64,000 nt of DNA, taken from the NCBI RefSeq assembly GCF_002854065.1, contig NZ_CP024147.1. One strand, written 5' to 3'. Every line of letters starts with the position of its first letter. Positions within the stretch are counted from its first letter, which is position 1. The notes below the pieces were generated by a model. It ran no database searches, was not told the DNA's origin, and was given only the letters and a program-made list of their open reading frames with translations. The stretch comes from Escherichia coli (GTDB taxonomy: Bacteria > Pseudomonadota > Gammaproteobacteria > Enterobacterales > Enterobacteriaceae). The position numbers were made by a program, and so were the translations under genes. Shown here piece after piece: positions 1,353-62,043 of this stretch.

Positions 1353-2344
1353 TGCGTATTCGCTACGGTTGGGAACTGGCTCTTGCCGCACTGCTCGTAA
1401 TTGAGATTGTCGCATTTGGTGCAACTAACCCGCGGATGTTAGACCTCAATATGTTGCTGTTCAGCACCAGTGATTTTATCTGCATTGGCATTGTCGCCCT
1501 ACCGTTGACGATGGTGATTGTCAGTGGCGGGATCGATATTTCGTTTGGTTCGACCATCGGCCTCTGCGCCATTGCATTGGGCGTGCTGTTTCAAAGTGGT
1601 GTGCCGATGCCGCTGGCGATTCTTCTGACCTTACTGCTCGGCGCATTGTGCGGGCTGATCAACGCCGGATTAATTATCTATACCAAAGTTAACCCGCTGG
1701 TGATTACGCTTGGCACGCTGTATCTGTTTGCCGGAAGCGCCCTGCTGCTTTCCGGGATGGCCGGAGCGACGGGGTACGAAGGTATTGGTGGATTCCCGAT
1801 GGCGTTTACAGATTTCGCTAACCTGGATGTGTTGGGGCTCCCCGTTCCGCTGATTATCTTCCTGATATGTCTCCTCGTTTTCTGGCTCTGGCTGCATAAA
1901 ACCCATGCCGGACGTAATGTGTTTTTGATTGGGCAAAGCCCGCGCGTGGCGCTTTATAGCGCGATTCCAGTTAACCGCACCTTATGTGCGCTCTATGCCA
2001 TGACGGGGCTGGCGTCTGCGGTCGCCGCTGTGCTGCTGGTGTCGTATTTTGGTTCAGCACGTTCCGATCTCGGTGCGTCGTTTCTGATGCCCGCCATCAC
2101 CGCCGTGGTGCTTGGCGGTGCCAATATTTATGGTGGTTCCGGTTCCATTATCGGCACCGCCATTGCGGTTTTATTAGTGGGATATTTGCAACAAGGTTTG
2201 CAAATGGCAGGAGTGCCAAATCAGGTGTCCAGCGCCCTTTCCGGTGCGCTACTTATCGTCGTTGTCGTAGGTCGTTCCGTTAGCCTGCATCGCCAGCAAA
2301 TTAAAGAGTGGCTGGCGCGTCGGGCCAATAACCCATTGCCATAA
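1352..2344 (+). CDS. lsrD: AI-2 ABC transporter permease
   Basis: 330-aa membrane ORF; start overlaps lsrC stop by 1 nt (TAATG), consistent with translational coupling. Confidence 0.9.
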
Positions 2345-2355
2345 AGGATATCTTC

Positions 2356-3378
2356 ATGACACTTCATCGCTTTAAGAAAATCGCCTTACTTAGCGCTCTT
2401 GGCATTGCCGCAATCTCTATGAATGTGCAGGCCGCAGAGCGTATTGCATTTATTCCCAAACTGGTTGGCGTGGGATTTTTTACCAGCGGTGGCAACGGCG
2501 CACAACAAGCGGGTAAAGAGCTGGGCGTTGATGTGACCTACGACGGGCCGACAGAACCCAGTGTTTCTAGTCAGGTACAGTTGATTAATAACTTCGTCAA
2601 TCAAGGTTATAACGCCATTATCGTTTCTGCGGTTTCGCCTGATGGCTTGTGTCCGGCACTGAAACGCGCCATGCAACGTGGTGTGAGAGTGCTGACCTGG
2701 GACTCTGATACTAAACCGGAGTGCCGCTCTTACTACATTAATCAGGGAACTCCCGCCCAGTTGGGAGGTATGTTGGTGGATATGGCGGCGCGTCAGGTGA
2801 ATAAAGACAAAGCCAAAGTCGCGTTTTTCTACTCAAGCCCCACCGTTACGGACCAAAACCAGTGGGTGAAAGAAGCGAAAGCGAAAATCGCCAAAGAGCA
2901 TCCTGGCTGGGAAATTGTCACTACGCAGTTTGGCTATAACGATGCCACTAAATCGTTACAAACCGCAGAAGGAATATTAAAAGCGTATAGCGATCTCGAC
3001 GCCATTATCGCCCCCGATGCCAATGCCCTGCCCGCTGCCGCACAAGCCGCAGAAAACCTGAAAAATGACAAAGTTGCGATTGTCGGATTCAGTACGCCAA
3101 ACGTGATGCGTCCATATGTGGAACGCGGCACGGTGAAAGAATTTGGCCTGTGGGATGTGGTTCAGCAAGGCAAAATTTCAGTTTATGTCGCGGATGCATT
3201 ATTGAAAAAAGGATCAATGAAAACGGGCGACAAGCTGGATATTCAGGGCGTAGGTCAGGTGGAAGTCTCGCCAAACAGCGTCCAGGGCTATGACTACGAA
3301 GCGGATGGTAATGGCATCGTACTGTTACCGGAGCGCGTGATATTCAACAAAGAGAATATCGGCAAATACGATTTCTGA
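2356..3378 (+). CDS. lsrB: AI-2 periplasmic binding protein
   Basis: 340-aa ORF with N-terminal signal peptide ([26 protein letters not shown]) and periplasmic sugar-binding-like fold. Confidence 0.9.
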
Positions 3379-3404
3379 TGTGCATTACTTAACCGGAGTA
3401 AGTT

Positions 3405-4280
3405 ATGGCAGATTTAGACGATATTAAAGATGGTAAAGATTTTCGTACCGATCAACCGCAAAAAAATATCCCTTTTACCCTGAAAGGTTGCGGTGCGCTG
3501 GATTGGGGAATGCAGTCACGCTTATCGCGGATATTTAATCCGAAAACGGGTAAAACCGTGATGCTGGCTTTTGACCATGGTTATTTTCAGGGACCGACTA
3601 CCGGACTTGAACGCATTGATATAAATATCGCCCCGCTGTTTGAACATGCCGATGTATTAATGTGTACGCGCGGCATTTTGCGCAGCGTAGTTCCCCCTGC
3701 GACCAATAGGCCGGTGGTACTGCGGGCGTCAGGTGCGAACTCTATTCTGGCGGAATTAAGTAATGAAGCCGTGGCGTTATCGATGGATGACGCCGTGCGC
3801 CTGAACAGTTGCGCGGTGGCGGCGCAGGTTTATATCGGAAGCGAATATGAACATCAGTCGATCAAAAATATTATTCAGCTGGTCGATGCCGGAATGAAAG
3901 TGGGAATGCCGACCATGGCCGTGACAGGCGTGGGCAAAGATATGGTGCGCGATCAGCGTTATTTCTCGCTCGCGACTCGAATAGCCGCTGAAATGGGGGC
4001 GCTAATTATCAAAACCTATTATGTCGAAAAAGGTTTTGAACGGATTGTTGCCGGATGTCCGGTACCCATTGTTATTGCTGGCGGTAAAAAATTACCGGAG
4101 CGCGAGGCGCTGGAAATGTGCTGGCAGGCTATCGATCAGGGCGCTTCTGGTGTGGATATGGGGCGTAATATTTTCCAGTCTGACCATCCGGTGGCAATGA
4201 TGAAAGCCGTACAGGCGGTGGTACACCATAACGAAACGGCTGATCGGGCATATGAACTCTATCTGAGTGAAAAACAGTAA
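3405..4280 (+). CDS. lsrF: aldolase-family enzyme of AI-2 processing (3-hydroxy-2,4-pentadione 5-phosphate thiolase)
   Basis: 291-aa ORF, class I aldolase-like; operon position. Confidence 0.85.
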
Positions 4281-58650: not shown

Positions 58651-58793
58651 ATAGGTTACAGTGTCACGTTTTTTATCTCTTAAAGCACGCACTGCTTTTG
58701 CGGCTGGCCTCTTTTGCCGCAAAATAGTCGCCCGTGTTTCATTGCCCATTTCTGCTCATGCATCATCTACACATCTATCCGGATCTGCGCACT

Positions 58794-60050
58794 ATGTTCC
58801 GCCGTCTGCTTATCGAAACAGTCGTCGGTATTCTCGCGGCCTTTGCCGTTGCCGGGTTTCGTCATGCGATGCTGCTACTGGAGTGGTTGTTCCTCAATAA
58901 TGACTCGGGCAGTCTGGTCAATGCAGCGACAAATCTTTCCCCCTGGCGACGGCTGCTAACTCCGGCGCTCGGCGGACTGGCGGCGGGTTTGTTGTTGATG
59001 GGCTGGCAGAAATTTACCCAGCAACGCCCTCATGCGCCGACCGATTACATGGAAGCGTTGCAAACCGATGGTCAGTTTGATTACGCAGCAAGCCTGGTTA
59101 AATCGCTTGCCTCTCTGCTGGTAGTAACCAGCGGCAGCGCAATTGGTCGCGAAGGTGCGATGATTCTTTTAGCTGCCCTTGCCGCCTCCTGTTTTGCCCA
59201 ACGTTTTACGCCACGCCAGGAGTGGAAATTATGGATCGCCTGTGGGGCCGCGGCGGGAATGGCTGCGGCCTATCGTGCCCCGCTTGCTGGCAGTTTATTT
59301 ATAGCCGAAGTGCTGTTTGGCACTATGATGTTGGCCTCTCTCGGCCCGGTGATTATTTCCGCCGTCGTGGCATTGCTGGTTAGCAATCTGATTAATCATA
59401 GCGACGCGTTACTCTACAGCGTACAACTCTCAGTGACGGTTCAGGCTCGTGACTATGCGCTGATTATCAGTACAGGTGTGCTGGCAGGTCGGTGCGGACC
59501 ACTGTTGTTAACGTTAATGAACGCCTGTCATCGTGGATTTGTGAGTCTCAAACTTGCGCCGCCCTGGCAACTGGCACTAGGCGGGTTGATCGTGGGTCTG
59601 CTTTCCCTGTTCACACCTGCAGTGTGGGGCAACGGCTATAGCACCGTACAATCCTTTTTAACCGCCCCGCCACTGTTAATGATCATTGCCGGGATCTTCC
59701 TTTGTAAACTGTGTGCCGTGCTGGCGAGTAGCGGTTCCGGCGCACCCGGTGGTGTCTTTACACCGACGCTATTTATCGGTCTTGCCATTGGCATGTTGTA
59801 TGGTCGTAGCCTGGGATTATGGTTCCCTGATGGCGAAGAAATTACGCTTTTACTCGGATTGACCGGGATGGCGACACTGTTGGCGGCAACCACGCACGCG
59901 CCGATTATGTCGACGTTGATGATATGTGAAATGACCGGGGAGTATCAGCTACTCCCCGGTTTATTGATTGCCTGCGTAATTGCGTCGGTAATCTCGCGGA
60001 CGTTACACCGTGACTCTATCTACCGCCAGCACACTGCGCAGCATAGCTAA
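58794..60050 (+). CDS. clcB: ClC-family voltage-gated chloride channel
   Basis: ATG at 58794 gives ~418 aa (track ORF starts at GTG 58734); GSAIGREGA selectivity-filter-like motif. Confidence 0.9.
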
Positions 60051-60698
60051 GCGGATGTATTGCCCCAGTTCACGCTGTTCGGCGCGCGGCAGATAAGGCA
60101 GTTCACCAATGAGCGGTGCCGGAAGTTTTTTACCGAGCACATCAATGATTTCCGCATAATGCGCCAGTCCTGGGTTGATTCGGTTAGCCACCCAGCCAAT
60201 GAGCGGCAGCCCGTCGTTGGCAATCGCCTGAGCTGTTAGCAGTGCATGGTTAATGCAACCTTCCTGAATACCGACAACCATCAACACCGGCAGTTGTTCC
60301 TGCACCACCCATTCAGAGAGTGGACGCAAATCATTCATCAGACTACGCCAGCCGCCAGTCCCTTCTACCACGACATGATCGACTTTTTCGGTCAGGTTTG
60401 CCAGGCCGTTTGAAATGAGGGTGTAATTGATTGGGCAACTGTGCGCCACGCTACTTTCTTCTTCGCTTAACGCGATAGGATTAACTGCTTCATAAGGCAG
60501 TTCGATGGTTGAAACACTCTGCAACACCAGGGCATCTTTATTACGCAGCCCTTCGGGTGTCTCTTTGCTCCCCTTCGCTACGGGTTTATATCCCGCAACC
60601 GTTTTTCCCTGGGAGGCTAACGCTTGTAGCAATGCGCGGGAAACCACCGTTTTCCCTACAGAAGTGTCTGTACCGGTAATAAAGAAACGCTTCAGCAT
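60003..60698 (-). CDS. ynfK: dethiobiotin-synthetase paralogue (BioD-like ATPase)
   Basis: P-loop GTDTSVGKT; ~231 aa; 3' end overlaps the clcB 3' end by 48 bp on the opposite strand. Confidence 0.85.
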
Positions 60699-60822
60699 CA
60701 CTAACTCCACCGTTATGCTTCACAAATATAAACCAGGAAAATAATTAACCTTGAAAGTCTAAGTTATGCTTTCCTGGCCCAAATTGAGATAGCGCAAATT
60801 TTGGTAGAACAGTTAAAAAATG

Positions 60823-62043
60823 TTAACCCTGCAACAGACGAATCAACAAAGAACCGTTATACATCGCGTCTTTTACCAGCGCAGCCCCTGCCATCGTGCC
60901 CTGGTTAGAAAACTGAGTACTCTCAACGCTAATGTGCTGACTATACGCAGGAAGGGCCTGCTGACGGATGCTATCTGAGATGACCGGGAAGAGGATATCT
61001 GCCGCTTTACTTAACGGTGAGCCAATCAGTATTTTTTGTGGGTTAAATAAATTCACCATGATGGCAAGAATGCGCCCTACATGCGCGCCCACCCCGGTAA
61101 TGATGTCTTTTGCCAGCAGATCGCCGCGCAATGCCGCCTGACACAATGAGTCCACGGTTAACGGTTGCCCATGTAACATCGAGCTCATGGATTGATTGAG
61201 ACGCAGCTGTGCCAGCTCAAGAATACTGTCCACACTGGCGATGGTTTCGAGGCAGCCGTGGTTCCCGCAATAACAGCGTTTACCATATGGGTCTACCTGT
61301 GTGTGACCTATTTCCACGAGGCTACTGCTGCCTGCGTGTAGCAGATGACCATCGGTAATGACGCCCGCCCCCACGTTGTGATCGATAACCACCTGGATCA
61401 CATCGCGCGCCCCGCGTGAGGCACCAAACAAGGCCTCTGCCATCGTCCATGCGCTGATATCATGCTGAATATAAACCGGAACGCCGGTATGCTGCTCCAG
61501 AGCCTCGCCGAGCGGCATCTCTTTTACATCCTCGTAGAACGGCATGCGATGTACAATGCCATTTTCCGTATCAATAATTCCCGGCAGGGTTATGGCAATC
61601 GAAGTTAGACGCTCAAGTTTTTTCTGGTGGCGGATAAAAAACTGATCGATATGGGAAATGATACGATCCAGCAATGGCGAGTCATCTTTTAACGCCAGTT
61701 CCTGCGACTCTTCCACCACCAGTTTGCTGCTCAGATCGCGCAGAGCAAGGAAAATCTCCCCGCGACTAATGCGCAGAGAAAGATAGTGCCAGGCTTCAGT
61801 TTCAACCACCAGCCCCACCGCCGGACGGCCACGGTTCCCCGCTTCTTTGATTTCCAGCTCTTGTACCAAGTGTGCTTCGAGCATCTCACGGACAATTTTA
61901 GTGATACTGGCAGGAGCCAGCTGCGCCAGACGGGAAAGATCGATACGCGAGACTGGACCAAGCTGATCAATCAGGCGATAAACCGCGCCCGCGTTGGTCT
62001 GCTTTATTTGATCAATGTGCCCAGGCTGGTTTTCAGCAACCAC
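60823..62043 (-). CDS. mlc: ROK-family global regulator of sugar uptake (Mlc/DgsA)
   Basis: 406-aa ORF with N-terminal HTH and ROK sugar-kinase-like domain. Confidence 0.9.
   Translation of the reverse strand: MVAENQPGHIDQIKQTNAGAVYRLIDQLGPVSRIDLSRLAQLAPASITKIVREMLEAHLVQELEIKEAGNRGRPAVGLVVETEAWHYLSLRISRGEIFLALRDLSSKLVVEESQELALKDDSPLLDRIISHIDQFFIRHQKKLERLTSIAITLPGIIDTENGIVHRMPFYEDVKEMPLGEALEQHTGVPVYIQHDISAWTMAEALFGASRGARDVIQVVIDHNVGAGVITDGHLLHAGSSSLVEIGHTQVDPYGKRCYCGNHGCLETIASVDSILELAQLRLNQSMSSMLHGQPLTVDSLCQAALRGDLLAKDIITGVGAHVGRILAIMVNLFNPQKILIGSPLSKAADILFPVISDSIRQQALPAYSQHISVESTQFSNQGTMAGAALVKDAMYNGSLLIRLLQG

Follow-up and report, generated by a model that had tools for sequence, protein, structure and literature searches.

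Conserved convergent overlapping gene pairs in prokaryotes were reportedly surveyed by Rogozin et al. in 2002, and Rho-dependent 3' ends in Escherichia coli are said to be trimmed back to a stem-loop (Dar and Sorek 2018). Further surveys describe conserved convergent overlapping pairs in phase 123:321, and long overlaps are commonly real solely in the convergent orientation (PMC2174442, PMC2478687). The overlap between clcB and ynfK (bidA) of E. coli is a textbook-type, ordinary case of this arrangement, and changes little because it is already present, and thus already known, in the reference annotation. Its value is that of a clean worked example, in which a convergent overlap is found family-wide and constraint is seen on both reading frames; genomes that have lost clcB serve as natural controls, as this DNA has switched there from clcB to ynfK evolution. 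The detail new in this analysis is a GC-rich hairpin at 59934-59960, inside clcB. All coordinates refer to the window, a 64,000-nucleotide stretch of contig NZ_CP024147.1.

Results

Geometry and conservation of the overlap

The clcB frame on the plus strand closes with TAA at 60048-60050, and the ynfK frame on the minus strand closes with TAA at 60005-60003 (TTA at 60003-60005 on the plus strand). The earlier note had claimed a 48-bp overlap of the two 3' ends with these stops, and both stops and both frames are read from the sequence as it described. RefSeq agrees, annotating an identical overlap of 48 bp in strain CUWW06 (locus L001: clcB 1859-3151, bioD 3104-3799) and in MG1655 (clcB 1665315-1666571, bidA 1666524-1667219). 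The clcB start chosen by PGAP is 58758; the MG1655 start is 58794. The coding features are as follows.

58794 to 60050, plus strand: clcB coding sequence, CLC-family Cl-/H+ transporter, 418 amino acids with the MG1655 start (ORF, Pfam, ClcA structures, annotation).
60003 to 60698, minus strand: ynfK/bidA coding sequence, 231 amino acids, dethiobiotin synthetase and BioD paralogue (ORF, Pfam, BioD match, annotated bioD/bidA).
60003 to 60050, both strands: dual-coding overlap of 48 bp, ClcB residues 404-418 plus stop and YnfK residues 217-231 plus stop (ORFs, RefSeq, 20 orthologous loci).
60006 to 60038, minus strand: YnfK-specific C-terminal tail, 11 residues past the BioD end (BioD alignment, homologue tails).

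Each gene contributes 15 sense codons and its stop codon to the overlap, and the frames are in exact antisense codon register (phase 123:321, position 1 opposite position 3). Read on the opposite strand, the TTA of clcB Leu404 gives the ynfK stop, and the TTA of ynfK Leu217 gives the clcB TAA. This phase is the most permissive one, since the clcB codons that would stop ynfK are limited to TTA, CTA and TCA, which are rare (4.3% of clcB codons). For the 11-codon run-on of ynfK past the BioD-like end, the probability of remaining open by chance is ~0.6. With about 60% of such antisense runs open by chance, the length of the overlap by itself is unsurprising, and it is the conservation of the overlap, not its length, that exceeds chance.

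An overlap of 45-48 bp is retained in 20 Enterobacteriaceae loci, which represent at least 10 genera (Escherichia, Citrobacter, Salmonella, Cedecea, Klebsiella, Raoultella, Kluyvera, Buttiauxella, Scandinavium and Entomohabitans); the positions of both stops are identical or almost so. Alignment of both C-termini, by which the earlier note had proposed that its claim be checked, revealed no earlier end for either ORF in the 20 loci. The clcB-ynfK pair stays linked although the neighbours on the other side of clcB vary among loci. Within the species, a 136-nt stretch containing the overlap was recovered with at least 90% identity from 5,420 of 5,426 complete E. coli genomes.

ClcB residues 60-402 match Pfam PF00654 (Voltage_CLC, E = 2e-80), and HMMER alignments with ClcA structures stop at ClcB residue 410. 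This residue, Tyr410 (60021-60023), aligns with Tyr445 of Salmonella ClcA, Tyr578 of ClC-1 and Tyr553 of ClC-2, and also stands gap-free opposite Tyr445 of E. coli ClcA. ClcB has the features of the CLC family, a Voltage_CLC domain together with the central tyrosine that coordinates the anion, and the latter belongs to a conserved Ser-Ile-Tyr motif that is included in the overlap; S-[IV]-Y is found in nearly all of ~130 distant representatives. At locus L008, the sole defect of clcB is a stop codon one residue past the conserved tyrosine, and the reading of that copy as a pseudogene was softened on this account. A ClcB that ends after Tyr410 or Arg411 is found naturally in E. coli E69.

YnfK matches Pfam PF13500 (E = 2e-30), and its residues 3-220 align with E. 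coli BioD (PDB 1a82, E = 3e-65), whose end corresponds to YnfK Leu220 (60039-60041). The N-terminal GTDTSVGKT motif is conserved; full-length similarity to BioD, with the P-loop (GxxGxGKT) included, places YnfK in the BioD family as a predicted dethiobiotin synthetase. Most of 120 YnfK homologues have 231 residues and a tail ending in ..DR[VIL]x[AV]. The AlphaFold2 model says little about the structure of this tail because confidence is low there (pLDDT averages 50 over residues 221-230 and falls below 50 at 226-231). A literature search combining bidA with dethiobiotin synthetase gave no match in the set of papers covered. With both ORFs independently homologous to known proteins and both stops conserved in orthologues, the overlap is genuine and ancient, and is formed by two real genes placed tail-to-tail.

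A conserved hairpin and the 3' end of the ynfK transcript

Two further features lie within clcB on the strand of the ynfK transcript.

59934 to 59960, minus strand: perfect 11-bp GC-rich hairpin with a 5-nt loop, in clcB codons 381-389 (T-G-E-Y-Q-L-L-P-G) (fold, recoding, scan, covariation).
59993 (MG1655 1,666,514), minus strand: best-scoring coordinate of a Rho-dependent termination region (PMC7815308, Supplementary file 2).

The hairpin occupies nt 43-69 past the ynfK stop, precedes the clcB stop by 88 nt, and has a folding energy of -21.5 kcal/mol (z = -4.8). On the minus strand its stability exceeds that of synonymous recodings for 19 of 20 species (p <= 0.041), and it is the single outlier of a 900-nt scan (mean z = -3.6 on the minus strand, 12/12 species below -2). 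The plus-strand fold also beats the recoding null, in 15 of 20 species, and the strand preference is modest: 12/12 versus 7/12 species in the scan, and 97% versus 92% of cells paired at the 8 core pairs on the minus and plus strands, respectively. Over the hairpin, 89% of cells are paired, versus 28-46% in slid controls. A compensatory G-C to C-G change occurs at one pair in 4 genera, which is the sole covarying pair and comes from related sequences, and G-U-compatible changes slightly favour the ynfK strand. The hairpin thus combines stability past the coding constraint with covariation, as in a conserved structured RNA, and is conserved past the requirement of the ClcB protein.

On the ynfK strand, the hairpin is a GC-rich stem past the ynfK stop, followed by an invariant CAUUUCAC with 3 U in 8; it lacks a U-tract and departs from the simple intrinsic-terminator consensus. 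On the clcB strand, the tail (UUUAUUGAUU) is U-rich solely in Escherichia and some Citrobacter. A consensus scan for promoters and terminators flagged the hairpin solely on this strand, and found no excess of sites over shuffled sequence (2 versus 1.9). The hairpin is not a clcB terminator stem, because it is situated upstream of the clcB stop. No known RNA family was recovered when 59000-61000 was compared with Rfam at E up to 1; two sub-threshold chance matches were returned, to sraA (23.8 bits, threshold 56) and the SR6 antitoxin (23.2 bits, threshold 55). Compared with a published HusR box (CnGnnnAnnTnnnCnG), the hairpin was no match when judged by eye.

Published data place Rho-dependent termination at the 3' end of ynfK, where bicyclomycin raises read-through. 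Reads upstream/downstream were 85/11 without and 292/159 with bicyclomycin, and the termination region, with a Rho score of 4.2 (p = 1.5e-6), is classed as 'primary: ynfK; antisense: clcB' (PMC7815308). The coordinate, converted via the MG1655 annotation, is coarse because 800-nt windows were used, and at this resolution of ~800 nt it lies upstream of the hairpin on the ynfK transcript. No discrete 3' end for ynfK or clcB is present in the Term-seq data of the same study (PMC7815308, Supplementary files 1 and 3) or in the TERMITe supplements (PMC12207403). The position of the Rho coordinate, the weak U-tract and the missing discrete 3' end speak against a role in ynfK transcript ends; taken with the published Rho termination at the site, the hairpin is nevertheless probably a 3'-end element of the ynfK mRNA. 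With the ynfK transcript ended by Rho antisense to clcB, as published, the hairpin would most likely be its terminal stem-loop and work either as a pause site or as an exonuclease barrier, and ribosomes translating the clcB strand would keep the same sequence unfolded.

The inverted repeat could instead be no RNA element of ynfK: it might result as a by-product from a palindromic peptide (T-G-E...L-P-G), be bound as DNA by a dimeric protein, or act as a structure in the mRNA of clcB. The stem is indeed partly fixed by coding because the motif is part of a conserved helix of CLC proteins, the better U-rich tail is on the clcB strand in E. coli, where it was called terminator-like, the clcB-strand fold exceeds its null in the majority of species noted above, and a weak HusR SELEX peak lies nearby (PMC12844172). 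However, the same peptide recoded synonymously gives only ~-6 to -9 kcal/mol, against the observed -14 to -21, which rules out an origin from coding alone. Conservation is lacking for the U-rich tail of the clcB strand, a terminator there would truncate clcB ahead of its stop codon, and the G-U-compatible changes favour an RNA, slightly that of ynfK. In addition, species without clcB carry a stable hairpin at most ~70 nt past the ynfK stop. We therefore regard these other origins of the repeat as possible but doubtful, and retain the reading as a ynfK 3'-end element.

For the clcB transcript, the first 100 nt past the clcB stop show no unusual fold (z = +0.95), and a scan of 450 nt of ynfK revealed no conserved structure able to end the transcript. 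Given this negative scan, it is presumably Rho or a collision of polymerases that ends the clcB transcript.

Selection on the two frames

Within the overlap, the core segment constrained from both strands is the following.

60015 to 60023, both strands: doubly constrained core, ClcB Ser408-Ile409-Tyr410 (plus) and YnfK Val226-Asp227-Arg228 (minus) (HMMER alignments, codon choice).

When clcB is present, the overlap DNA evolves chiefly as clcB coding sequence: substitutions in the tail at ynfK codon positions 1/2/3 number 804/391/508 with clcB versus 17/14/38 without it. The tail of YnfK evolves far faster than its core (p = 2e-8). At Ser408 (TCT/TCG) and Ile409 (ATC/GTC), clcB almost exclusively uses those synonymous codons that preserve YnfK Arg228 and Asp227, and silent sites inside the overlap are slightly more conserved, at marginal significance (p = 0.02-0.04). 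These observations point to purifying selection on both frames within the overlap, on small samples and with a marginal silent-site effect. The earlier note had stated that the overlap constrains both C-termini; this holds insofar as synonymous choice in clcB keeps Asp227-Arg228 of YnfK and the tail is retained without clcB, and has to be qualified insofar as the region mainly follows clcB coding.

Four lineages without clcB, two of them related, show what becomes of the stretch. YnfK still has 231 residues and a tail ending in ...DR[IV]LA, and substitutions concentrate at ynfK third positions, as counted above. Because the tail is kept and evolves as ynfK coding sequence without clcB, it is YnfK's own. 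The residue before DR is Val/Ile when clcB is present and Ala/Cys when it is absent, a rule derived from the first two clcB-less lineages that held in 4/4 new look-ups. The hairpin downstream of ynfK in these species is intrinsic-terminator-like, follows the stop directly in two of them, and has a U-tract in three of four. After loss of clcB, the stretch evolves as ynfK coding sequence, with a terminator of the canonical kind close behind the ynfK stop.

The two proteins share the segment as follows. The domain cores avoid collision: ClcB needs to reach at least Tyr410, the BioD-like core of YnfK stops at Leu220, and the terminal tail of each protein is opposite the end of the partner's core. 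With clcB present, changes are absorbed by the YnfK tail, yet Asp227-Arg228 is held via the clcB codons for Ser408 and Ile409.

Alternatively, the YnfK tail may be a functionless read-through that arose after loss of a stop codon, the overlap being tolerated and not selected; all that would then preserve the tail is the harm that a new stop in ynfK would do to ClcB. The permissive phase, with a run-on of this length expected in about 60% of cases, is in keeping with such an accident, as are the phase distribution in E. coli, which fits a stop-codon-mutation model (PMC2174442), the fast evolution of the tail relative to the core, the clcB codon-position pattern of the overlap when clcB is present, and the low confidence with which the tail is modelled. 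It is nevertheless unlikely, given that the length and the ..DR[IV]LA ending are retained in all four clcB-less lineages with changes at ynfK third positions, and that Ser408 and Ile409 of clcB use almost only the codons that keep the Arg-Asp of YnfK. We thus favour a tail that is maintained as part of YnfK.

Antisense relation of the two transcripts

The two transcripts were also said by the earlier note to be necessarily antisense at their 3' ends. For full-length mRNAs this follows logically, and it is consistent with a Rho region classed as antisense to clcB (PMC7815308). The junction leaves no room between the genes, so that the signals for the 3' ends fall within the partner.

A more far-reaching proposal, which we consider quite improbable, is that the junction is a selected compact 3' module. 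Codons 381-389 of clcB would double as a ynfK hairpin active on the ynfK strand alone, with ribosomes melting the clcB-strand form, and convergent transcription over the 48-bp segment would couple or mutually limit the expression of a chloride transporter and an anaerobic dethiobiotin synthetase.

Selected antisense regulation, in which clcB and ynfK would inhibit each other by polymerase collision or via RNase III in the manner of an excludon, is very unlikely. The full-length mRNAs are complementary over at least 48 nt, transcription of ynfK enters clcB in antisense, with the downstream signal rising ~4-fold when Rho is inhibited (PMC7815308), the pair stays linked while the other neighbours of clcB change, and a stem-loop has been reported to position polymerase collisions at convergent pairs (bioRxiv 10.1101/2022.10.23.513370). 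On the other side, clcB and ynfK figure in a p19 dsRNA study (PMC7373196) solely in expression tables from aerobic cultures, with apparently low values, antisense read-through is limited by Rho, and clcB has been lost repeatedly with ynfK unchanged, which argues against an obligatory regulatory couple. The expression data consulted gave no evidence of a regulatory effect of the antisense relation or of reciprocal expression.

There is next to no chance that the overlap is an annotation artefact, with YnfK really ending near Leu220 or ClcB near residue 402, even though the overlap consists of 'extra' residues by domain-model boundaries, because the CLC Pfam domain stops at ClcB 402 and BioD at YnfK Leu220, the YnfK tail has low pLDDT, and long convergent overlaps are often mis-annotations from 3' extension (PMC2478687), since zero in-frame stops precede the annotated ones, both stop positions are kept in at least 10 genera, the near-universal CLC tyrosine (ClcB Tyr410) is inside the overlap, and the 231-residue length and DR motif of YnfK survive even without clcB.

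Discussion

The explanation that best accounts for the locus as a whole, and that we hold with considerable confidence, is a real and ancient overlap that evolves as described above, with transcript ends that we in part infer. Where intergenic space is missing, the 3'-end signal of one gene can be written into the codons of its partner. In practice, any recoding, deletion or tag at the 3' end of either gene alters the tail of the partner's protein, and such edits probably also change the 3' end of the ynfK mRNA.

Compared with its structural relatives, YnfK is similar to E. coli BioD (PDB 1a82) over residues 3-220, with 11 extra C-terminal residues. ClcB aligns with ClcA (PDB 1ots, 1kpk) through the helix preceding Tyr445; it ends 8 residues past the tyrosine, whereas ClcA runs for ~28 more.

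At the RNA level, the locus resembles Rho-terminated gene ends (PMC7815308) in its bicyclomycin-sensitive loss of ynfK reads just past the stop, and in a GC-rich hairpin without a good U-tract shortly downstream of ynfK. It differs from them in that the ynfK termination region and hairpin lie within a convergent coding sequence rather than an intergenic 3' UTR. As in bidirectional intrinsic terminators (SEnd-seq, Liu laboratory; bioRxiv 10.1101/2022.10.23.513370), one GC-rich stem-loop is common to the convergent pair, with A-rich sequence on one flank and U-rich sequence on the other in E. coli. Unlike them, the stem-loop has a poor U-tract on the ynfK strand and an unconserved one on the clcB strand, and comes 88 nt before the clcB stop.

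A further close match is to the surveyed convergent overlaps, with which clcB/ynfK has in common two independently homologous genes, a 3' overlap that is a multiple of 3, a codon-aligned antisense phase, and consistency with an origin by stop-codon shift. It stands apart from them in being kept beyond 'very close species', in no fewer than 10 genera of enterobacteria, and in containing a functionally critical residue, the central tyrosine of the CLC family.

Overlap of the clcB and ynfK coding sequences

The region has the E. coli chromosomal gene order ynfGH-dmsD-clcB / ynfK-mlc-ynfL, with the chloride transporter gene clcB on the plus strand converging on the BioD-paralogue gene ynfK on the minus strand. 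From the positions of the two stop codons, 60003-60050 is common to both coding sequences.

Features of the clcB/ynfK junction, in window coordinates
60048-60050, plus strand: clcB stop codon TAA (reading frame)
60005 to 60003, minus strand: ynfK stop codon TAA (reading frame)
60003-60050, both strands: coding segment shared by clcB and ynfK, 48 bp, comprising 15 sense codons and a stop codon of each gene
60021-23, plus strand: codon for ClcB Tyr410, within the overlap
59934-59960, inside clcB: hairpin ACCGGGGAGTA-TCAGC-TACTCCCCGGT, perfect 11-bp stem, -21.5 kcal/mol, z = -4.8

The 48-bp overlap claimed in an earlier note was borne out by both stops as read in the window, and by identical RefSeq annotation of strains CUWW06 (locus L001: clcB 1859-3151, bioD 3104-3799) and MG1655 (clcB 1665315-1666571, bidA 1666524-1667219), both of which match the window; the reference annotation already includes the overlap. 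A 136-nt stretch across it is present in 5,420 of 5,426 complete E. coli genomes, with both genes annotated over the stretch among the genome matches sampled. In NC_000913.3, ynfK (window 60003-60698, MG1655 b1593) has been renamed bidA, 'dethiobiotin synthetase BidA'; a literature search found no paper using this name. The clcB start differs by annotation (MG1655, ATG 58794, 418 aa; PGAP, ATG 58758, 430 aa), and within 58734-58794 the open frame reaches back to a GTG at 58734.

Phase and chance expectation

The frames align exactly, codon for codon, in antisense, with position 1 of one opposite position 3 of the other; clcB Leu404 (TTA) is complementary to the ynfK stop, and the clcB stop (TAA) to ynfK Leu217 (TTA). 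In this phase, ynfK is stopped only by the clcB codons TTA, CTA and TCA, which make up 4.3% of clcB codons and give a mean open run of 23 codons, and the 11-codon extension of YnfK past the end of BioD has a ~60% chance of staying open. Among E. coli convergent overlaps >4 bp, about one in three has the codon-aligned antisense phase, a share that a simple stop-codon-mutation model fits (PMC2174442). Of all annotated overlaps, ~7% are convergent, and only in this orientation do long ones often prove real (PMC2478687). Because of this chance openness and these survey data, neither the length nor the phase of the clcB/ynfK overlap is remarkable, and any significance has to rest on conservation.

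Conservation of the overlap

A ClcB genome scan combined with YnfK homologue look-ups yielded 20 loci carrying both genes, from Escherichia spp., Citrobacter spp., Salmonella arizonae, Cedecea, two 'Enterobacter sp.' isolates, Entomohabitans, Klebsiella, Raoultella, Kluyvera, Buttiauxella and Scandinavium. The overlap is 45 or 48 bp, in identical phase, in all 20, and neither ORF terminates earlier in any of them. In Buttiauxella and Scandinavium, different genes lie on the other side of clcB; since the overlap is kept while these neighbours differ, the clcB-ynfK pair has been kept as one unit.

Across the 20 loci, clcB positions 1/2/3 differed by a pairwise mean of 0.31/0.19/0.40 in the overlap and 0.33/0.19/0.51 in the upstream 100 clcB codons, showing that the overlap evolves like clcB. 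The YnfK tail changes far faster than the core of the protein, which is very conserved (ynfK position 1, 0.40 vs 0.09, p = 2e-8), and within the overlap the silent sites of both genes show somewhat higher conservation (p = 0.04 and 0.02). Dual constraint can be seen at single codons, clcB 408-410: Ser408 is TCT or TCG (ACG in one genus), all giving Arg in YnfK; the Ile/Val409 codon nearly always has a final C, which yields Asp or Glu; and Tyr410 is TAC or TAT, giving Val or Ile. The earlier note's reading, in which the overlap constrains both C-termini and makes the transcripts mutually antisense, is supported, as regards the C-termini in part; the finding is correct but ordinary.

The two C-termini and lineages without clcB

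The Pfam Voltage_CLC match covers ClcB residues 60-402, and alignments to some solved CLC structures extend to residue 410, which aligns with Salmonella ClcA Tyr445, ClC-1 Tyr578 and ClC-2 Tyr553. In the CLC family, this position holds the central anion-coordinating tyrosine. The S-[IV]-Y motif containing its equivalent is almost universal among ~130 distant representatives (27-50% identity), and short CLC relatives without C-terminal domains stop 2-20 residues past it. In E. coli E69 (locus L008, 2737-2784), a TAG replaces clcB Gln412 (..SIYR*; equivalent to window 60027-60029), a change synonymous in ynfK (Leu224). It would leave an overlap of 27 bp and a ClcB ending one residue past the conserved Tyr, resembling the short CLC relatives that end two residues past it.

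YnfK residues 3-220 align with E. coli BioD (PDB 1a82), whose end falls exactly at YnfK Leu220; YnfK therefore has an 11-residue tail. The conserved cores do not collide (ClcB core end, 60023; YnfK core end, 60039), each tail sitting opposite the end of the partner's core. Nearly all of 120 YnfK homologues are 231-232 aa long and end in ..DR[VIL]x[AV]. The AF2 model of the tail is of low confidence, with a helix at 218-226 and pLDDT <50 for residues 226-231.

Kosakonia and Pseudescherichia vulneris have a 231-aa YnfK with the same ..DR[VIL]x[AV] ending and no clcB, and Ala, not Val, precedes DR. This gave the prediction that Val/Ile before DR, as read antisense to a Tyr codon, would indicate that clcB is present, and Ala/Cys that it is absent. 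Four further look-ups agreed: uncultured Enterobacter (..CDRVLA) and Phytobacter (..ADRILA) have no clcB, while Raoultella and Kluyvera have clcB and a 48-bp overlap. Entomohabitans also obeys the rule, Arg replacing Tyr in its divergent ClcB and YnfK having Ala. In Phytobacter (locus L029, downstream of ynfK at 3196), clcB is gone between dmsD and ynfK, and a remnant of its last ~14 codons (LRQNSIRHQHAVRH) persists opposite the ynfK tail, so clcB was lost secondarily there. Tail substitutions in the four clcB-less lineages (11 codons; 17/14/38 at ynfK positions 1/2/3) follow the ynfK coding pattern, and those in clcB-bearing loci (804/391/508) the clcB pattern. The former establish the tail as a real, if weakly constrained, part of YnfK.

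Two Citrobacter loci (L019, 4001-4249; L020, 4001-4312) retain only the last ~100 clcB codons, with internal stops, and an intact, full-length ynfK; clcB thus decays independently of its overlapping partner. It has been lost or degraded repeatedly, with ynfK unchanged.

Transcript ends and an embedded hairpin

As there is no intergenic space, any 3' signal must fall inside the partner gene. DirectRNA-seq with and without bicyclomycin places a Rho termination region at minus-strand position 1,666,514 of MG1655, in the class 'primary: ynfK; antisense: clcB' (PMC7815308, Supplementary file 2). By coordinate conversion this is window 59993, 10 nt past the ynfK stop. Reads fell from 85 upstream to 11 downstream without the drug and from 292 to 159 with it (Rho score 4.2, p = 1.5e-6; coarse resolution; PMC7815308). 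No discrete Term-seq end is listed for ynfK or clcB. FNR directly activates ynfK (PMC3688515), so aerobic data sets probably sample it poorly. The mlc gene (60823-62043) lies 124 bp upstream of ynfK on the same strand (gap 60700-60822); together with FNR activation, this suggests that ynfK transcripts may have two sources, the gene's own promoter and read-through from mlc. For HusR (YnfL), the neighbouring LysR regulator, a weak genomic-SELEX peak is listed at the junction, at about window 60120 (MG1655 version 2 coordinate 1,664,668), with no HusR box given (PMC12844172, Table 1). We found no evidence of antisense regulation between the two genes. Their aerobic expression is weak (PMC7373196).

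The hairpin lies 43-69 nt downstream of the ynfK stop and codes for ClcB residues. Synonymous recodings of its peptide fold at only ~-6 to -9 kcal/mol, ruling out a by-product of the peptide. Its stability exceeds the recoding null on the ynfK strand in 19 of 20 species (p <= 0.041) and on the clcB strand in 15 of 20 (p < 0.05). A codon-register scan in 12 species, taking in ~900 nt on both sides of the overlap, had it as the sole outlier, with mean z -3.6 on the ynfK strand (12/12 species below -2) and -2.8 on the clcB strand (7/12). At its Thr ACC and Pro CCC codons, the synonymous third position never varies among the 20 loci. Where Gln replaces Glu (G to C), as in Klebsiella, Raoultella, Kluyvera and Scandinavium, Leu CTC has become CTG, preserving the stem pair as C-G. 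On the ynfK strand the eight core pairs form in 97% of cells of the comparison, against 92% on the clcB strand. In Entomohabitans teleogrylli (L016, 5189-5236), the sole species not beating the recoding null, the hairpin is degraded and ClcB is only 55% identical, with Arg for the conserved Tyr (..SVRRQ..); its clcB may be losing function.

A role as clcB terminator was rejected, as the hairpin falls in translated sequence, 88 nt before the clcB stop, where ribosomes on the clcB mRNA would presumably unfold it. The four clcB-less lineages carry an intrinsic-terminator-like hairpin within ~70 nt past the ynfK stop; in Kosakonia and uncultured Enterobacter this hairpin is a canonical terminator beginning immediately past the stop codon. 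We infer that the ynfK mRNA has the embedded hairpin as its terminal stem-loop. Its ynfK-strand tail (CAUUUCAC) is a poor U-tract, which would suit a pause site or exonuclease barrier alongside Rho better than an autonomous terminator.

Comparison with known overlaps

Conserved convergent overlaps with codon-aligned phase are a known class, and the clcB/ynfK arrangement is one of them. It is an ordinary, already annotated instance, standing out only by how widely it is conserved, by the inclusion of the central CLC tyrosine in the overlap and by the hairpin embedded in clcB.
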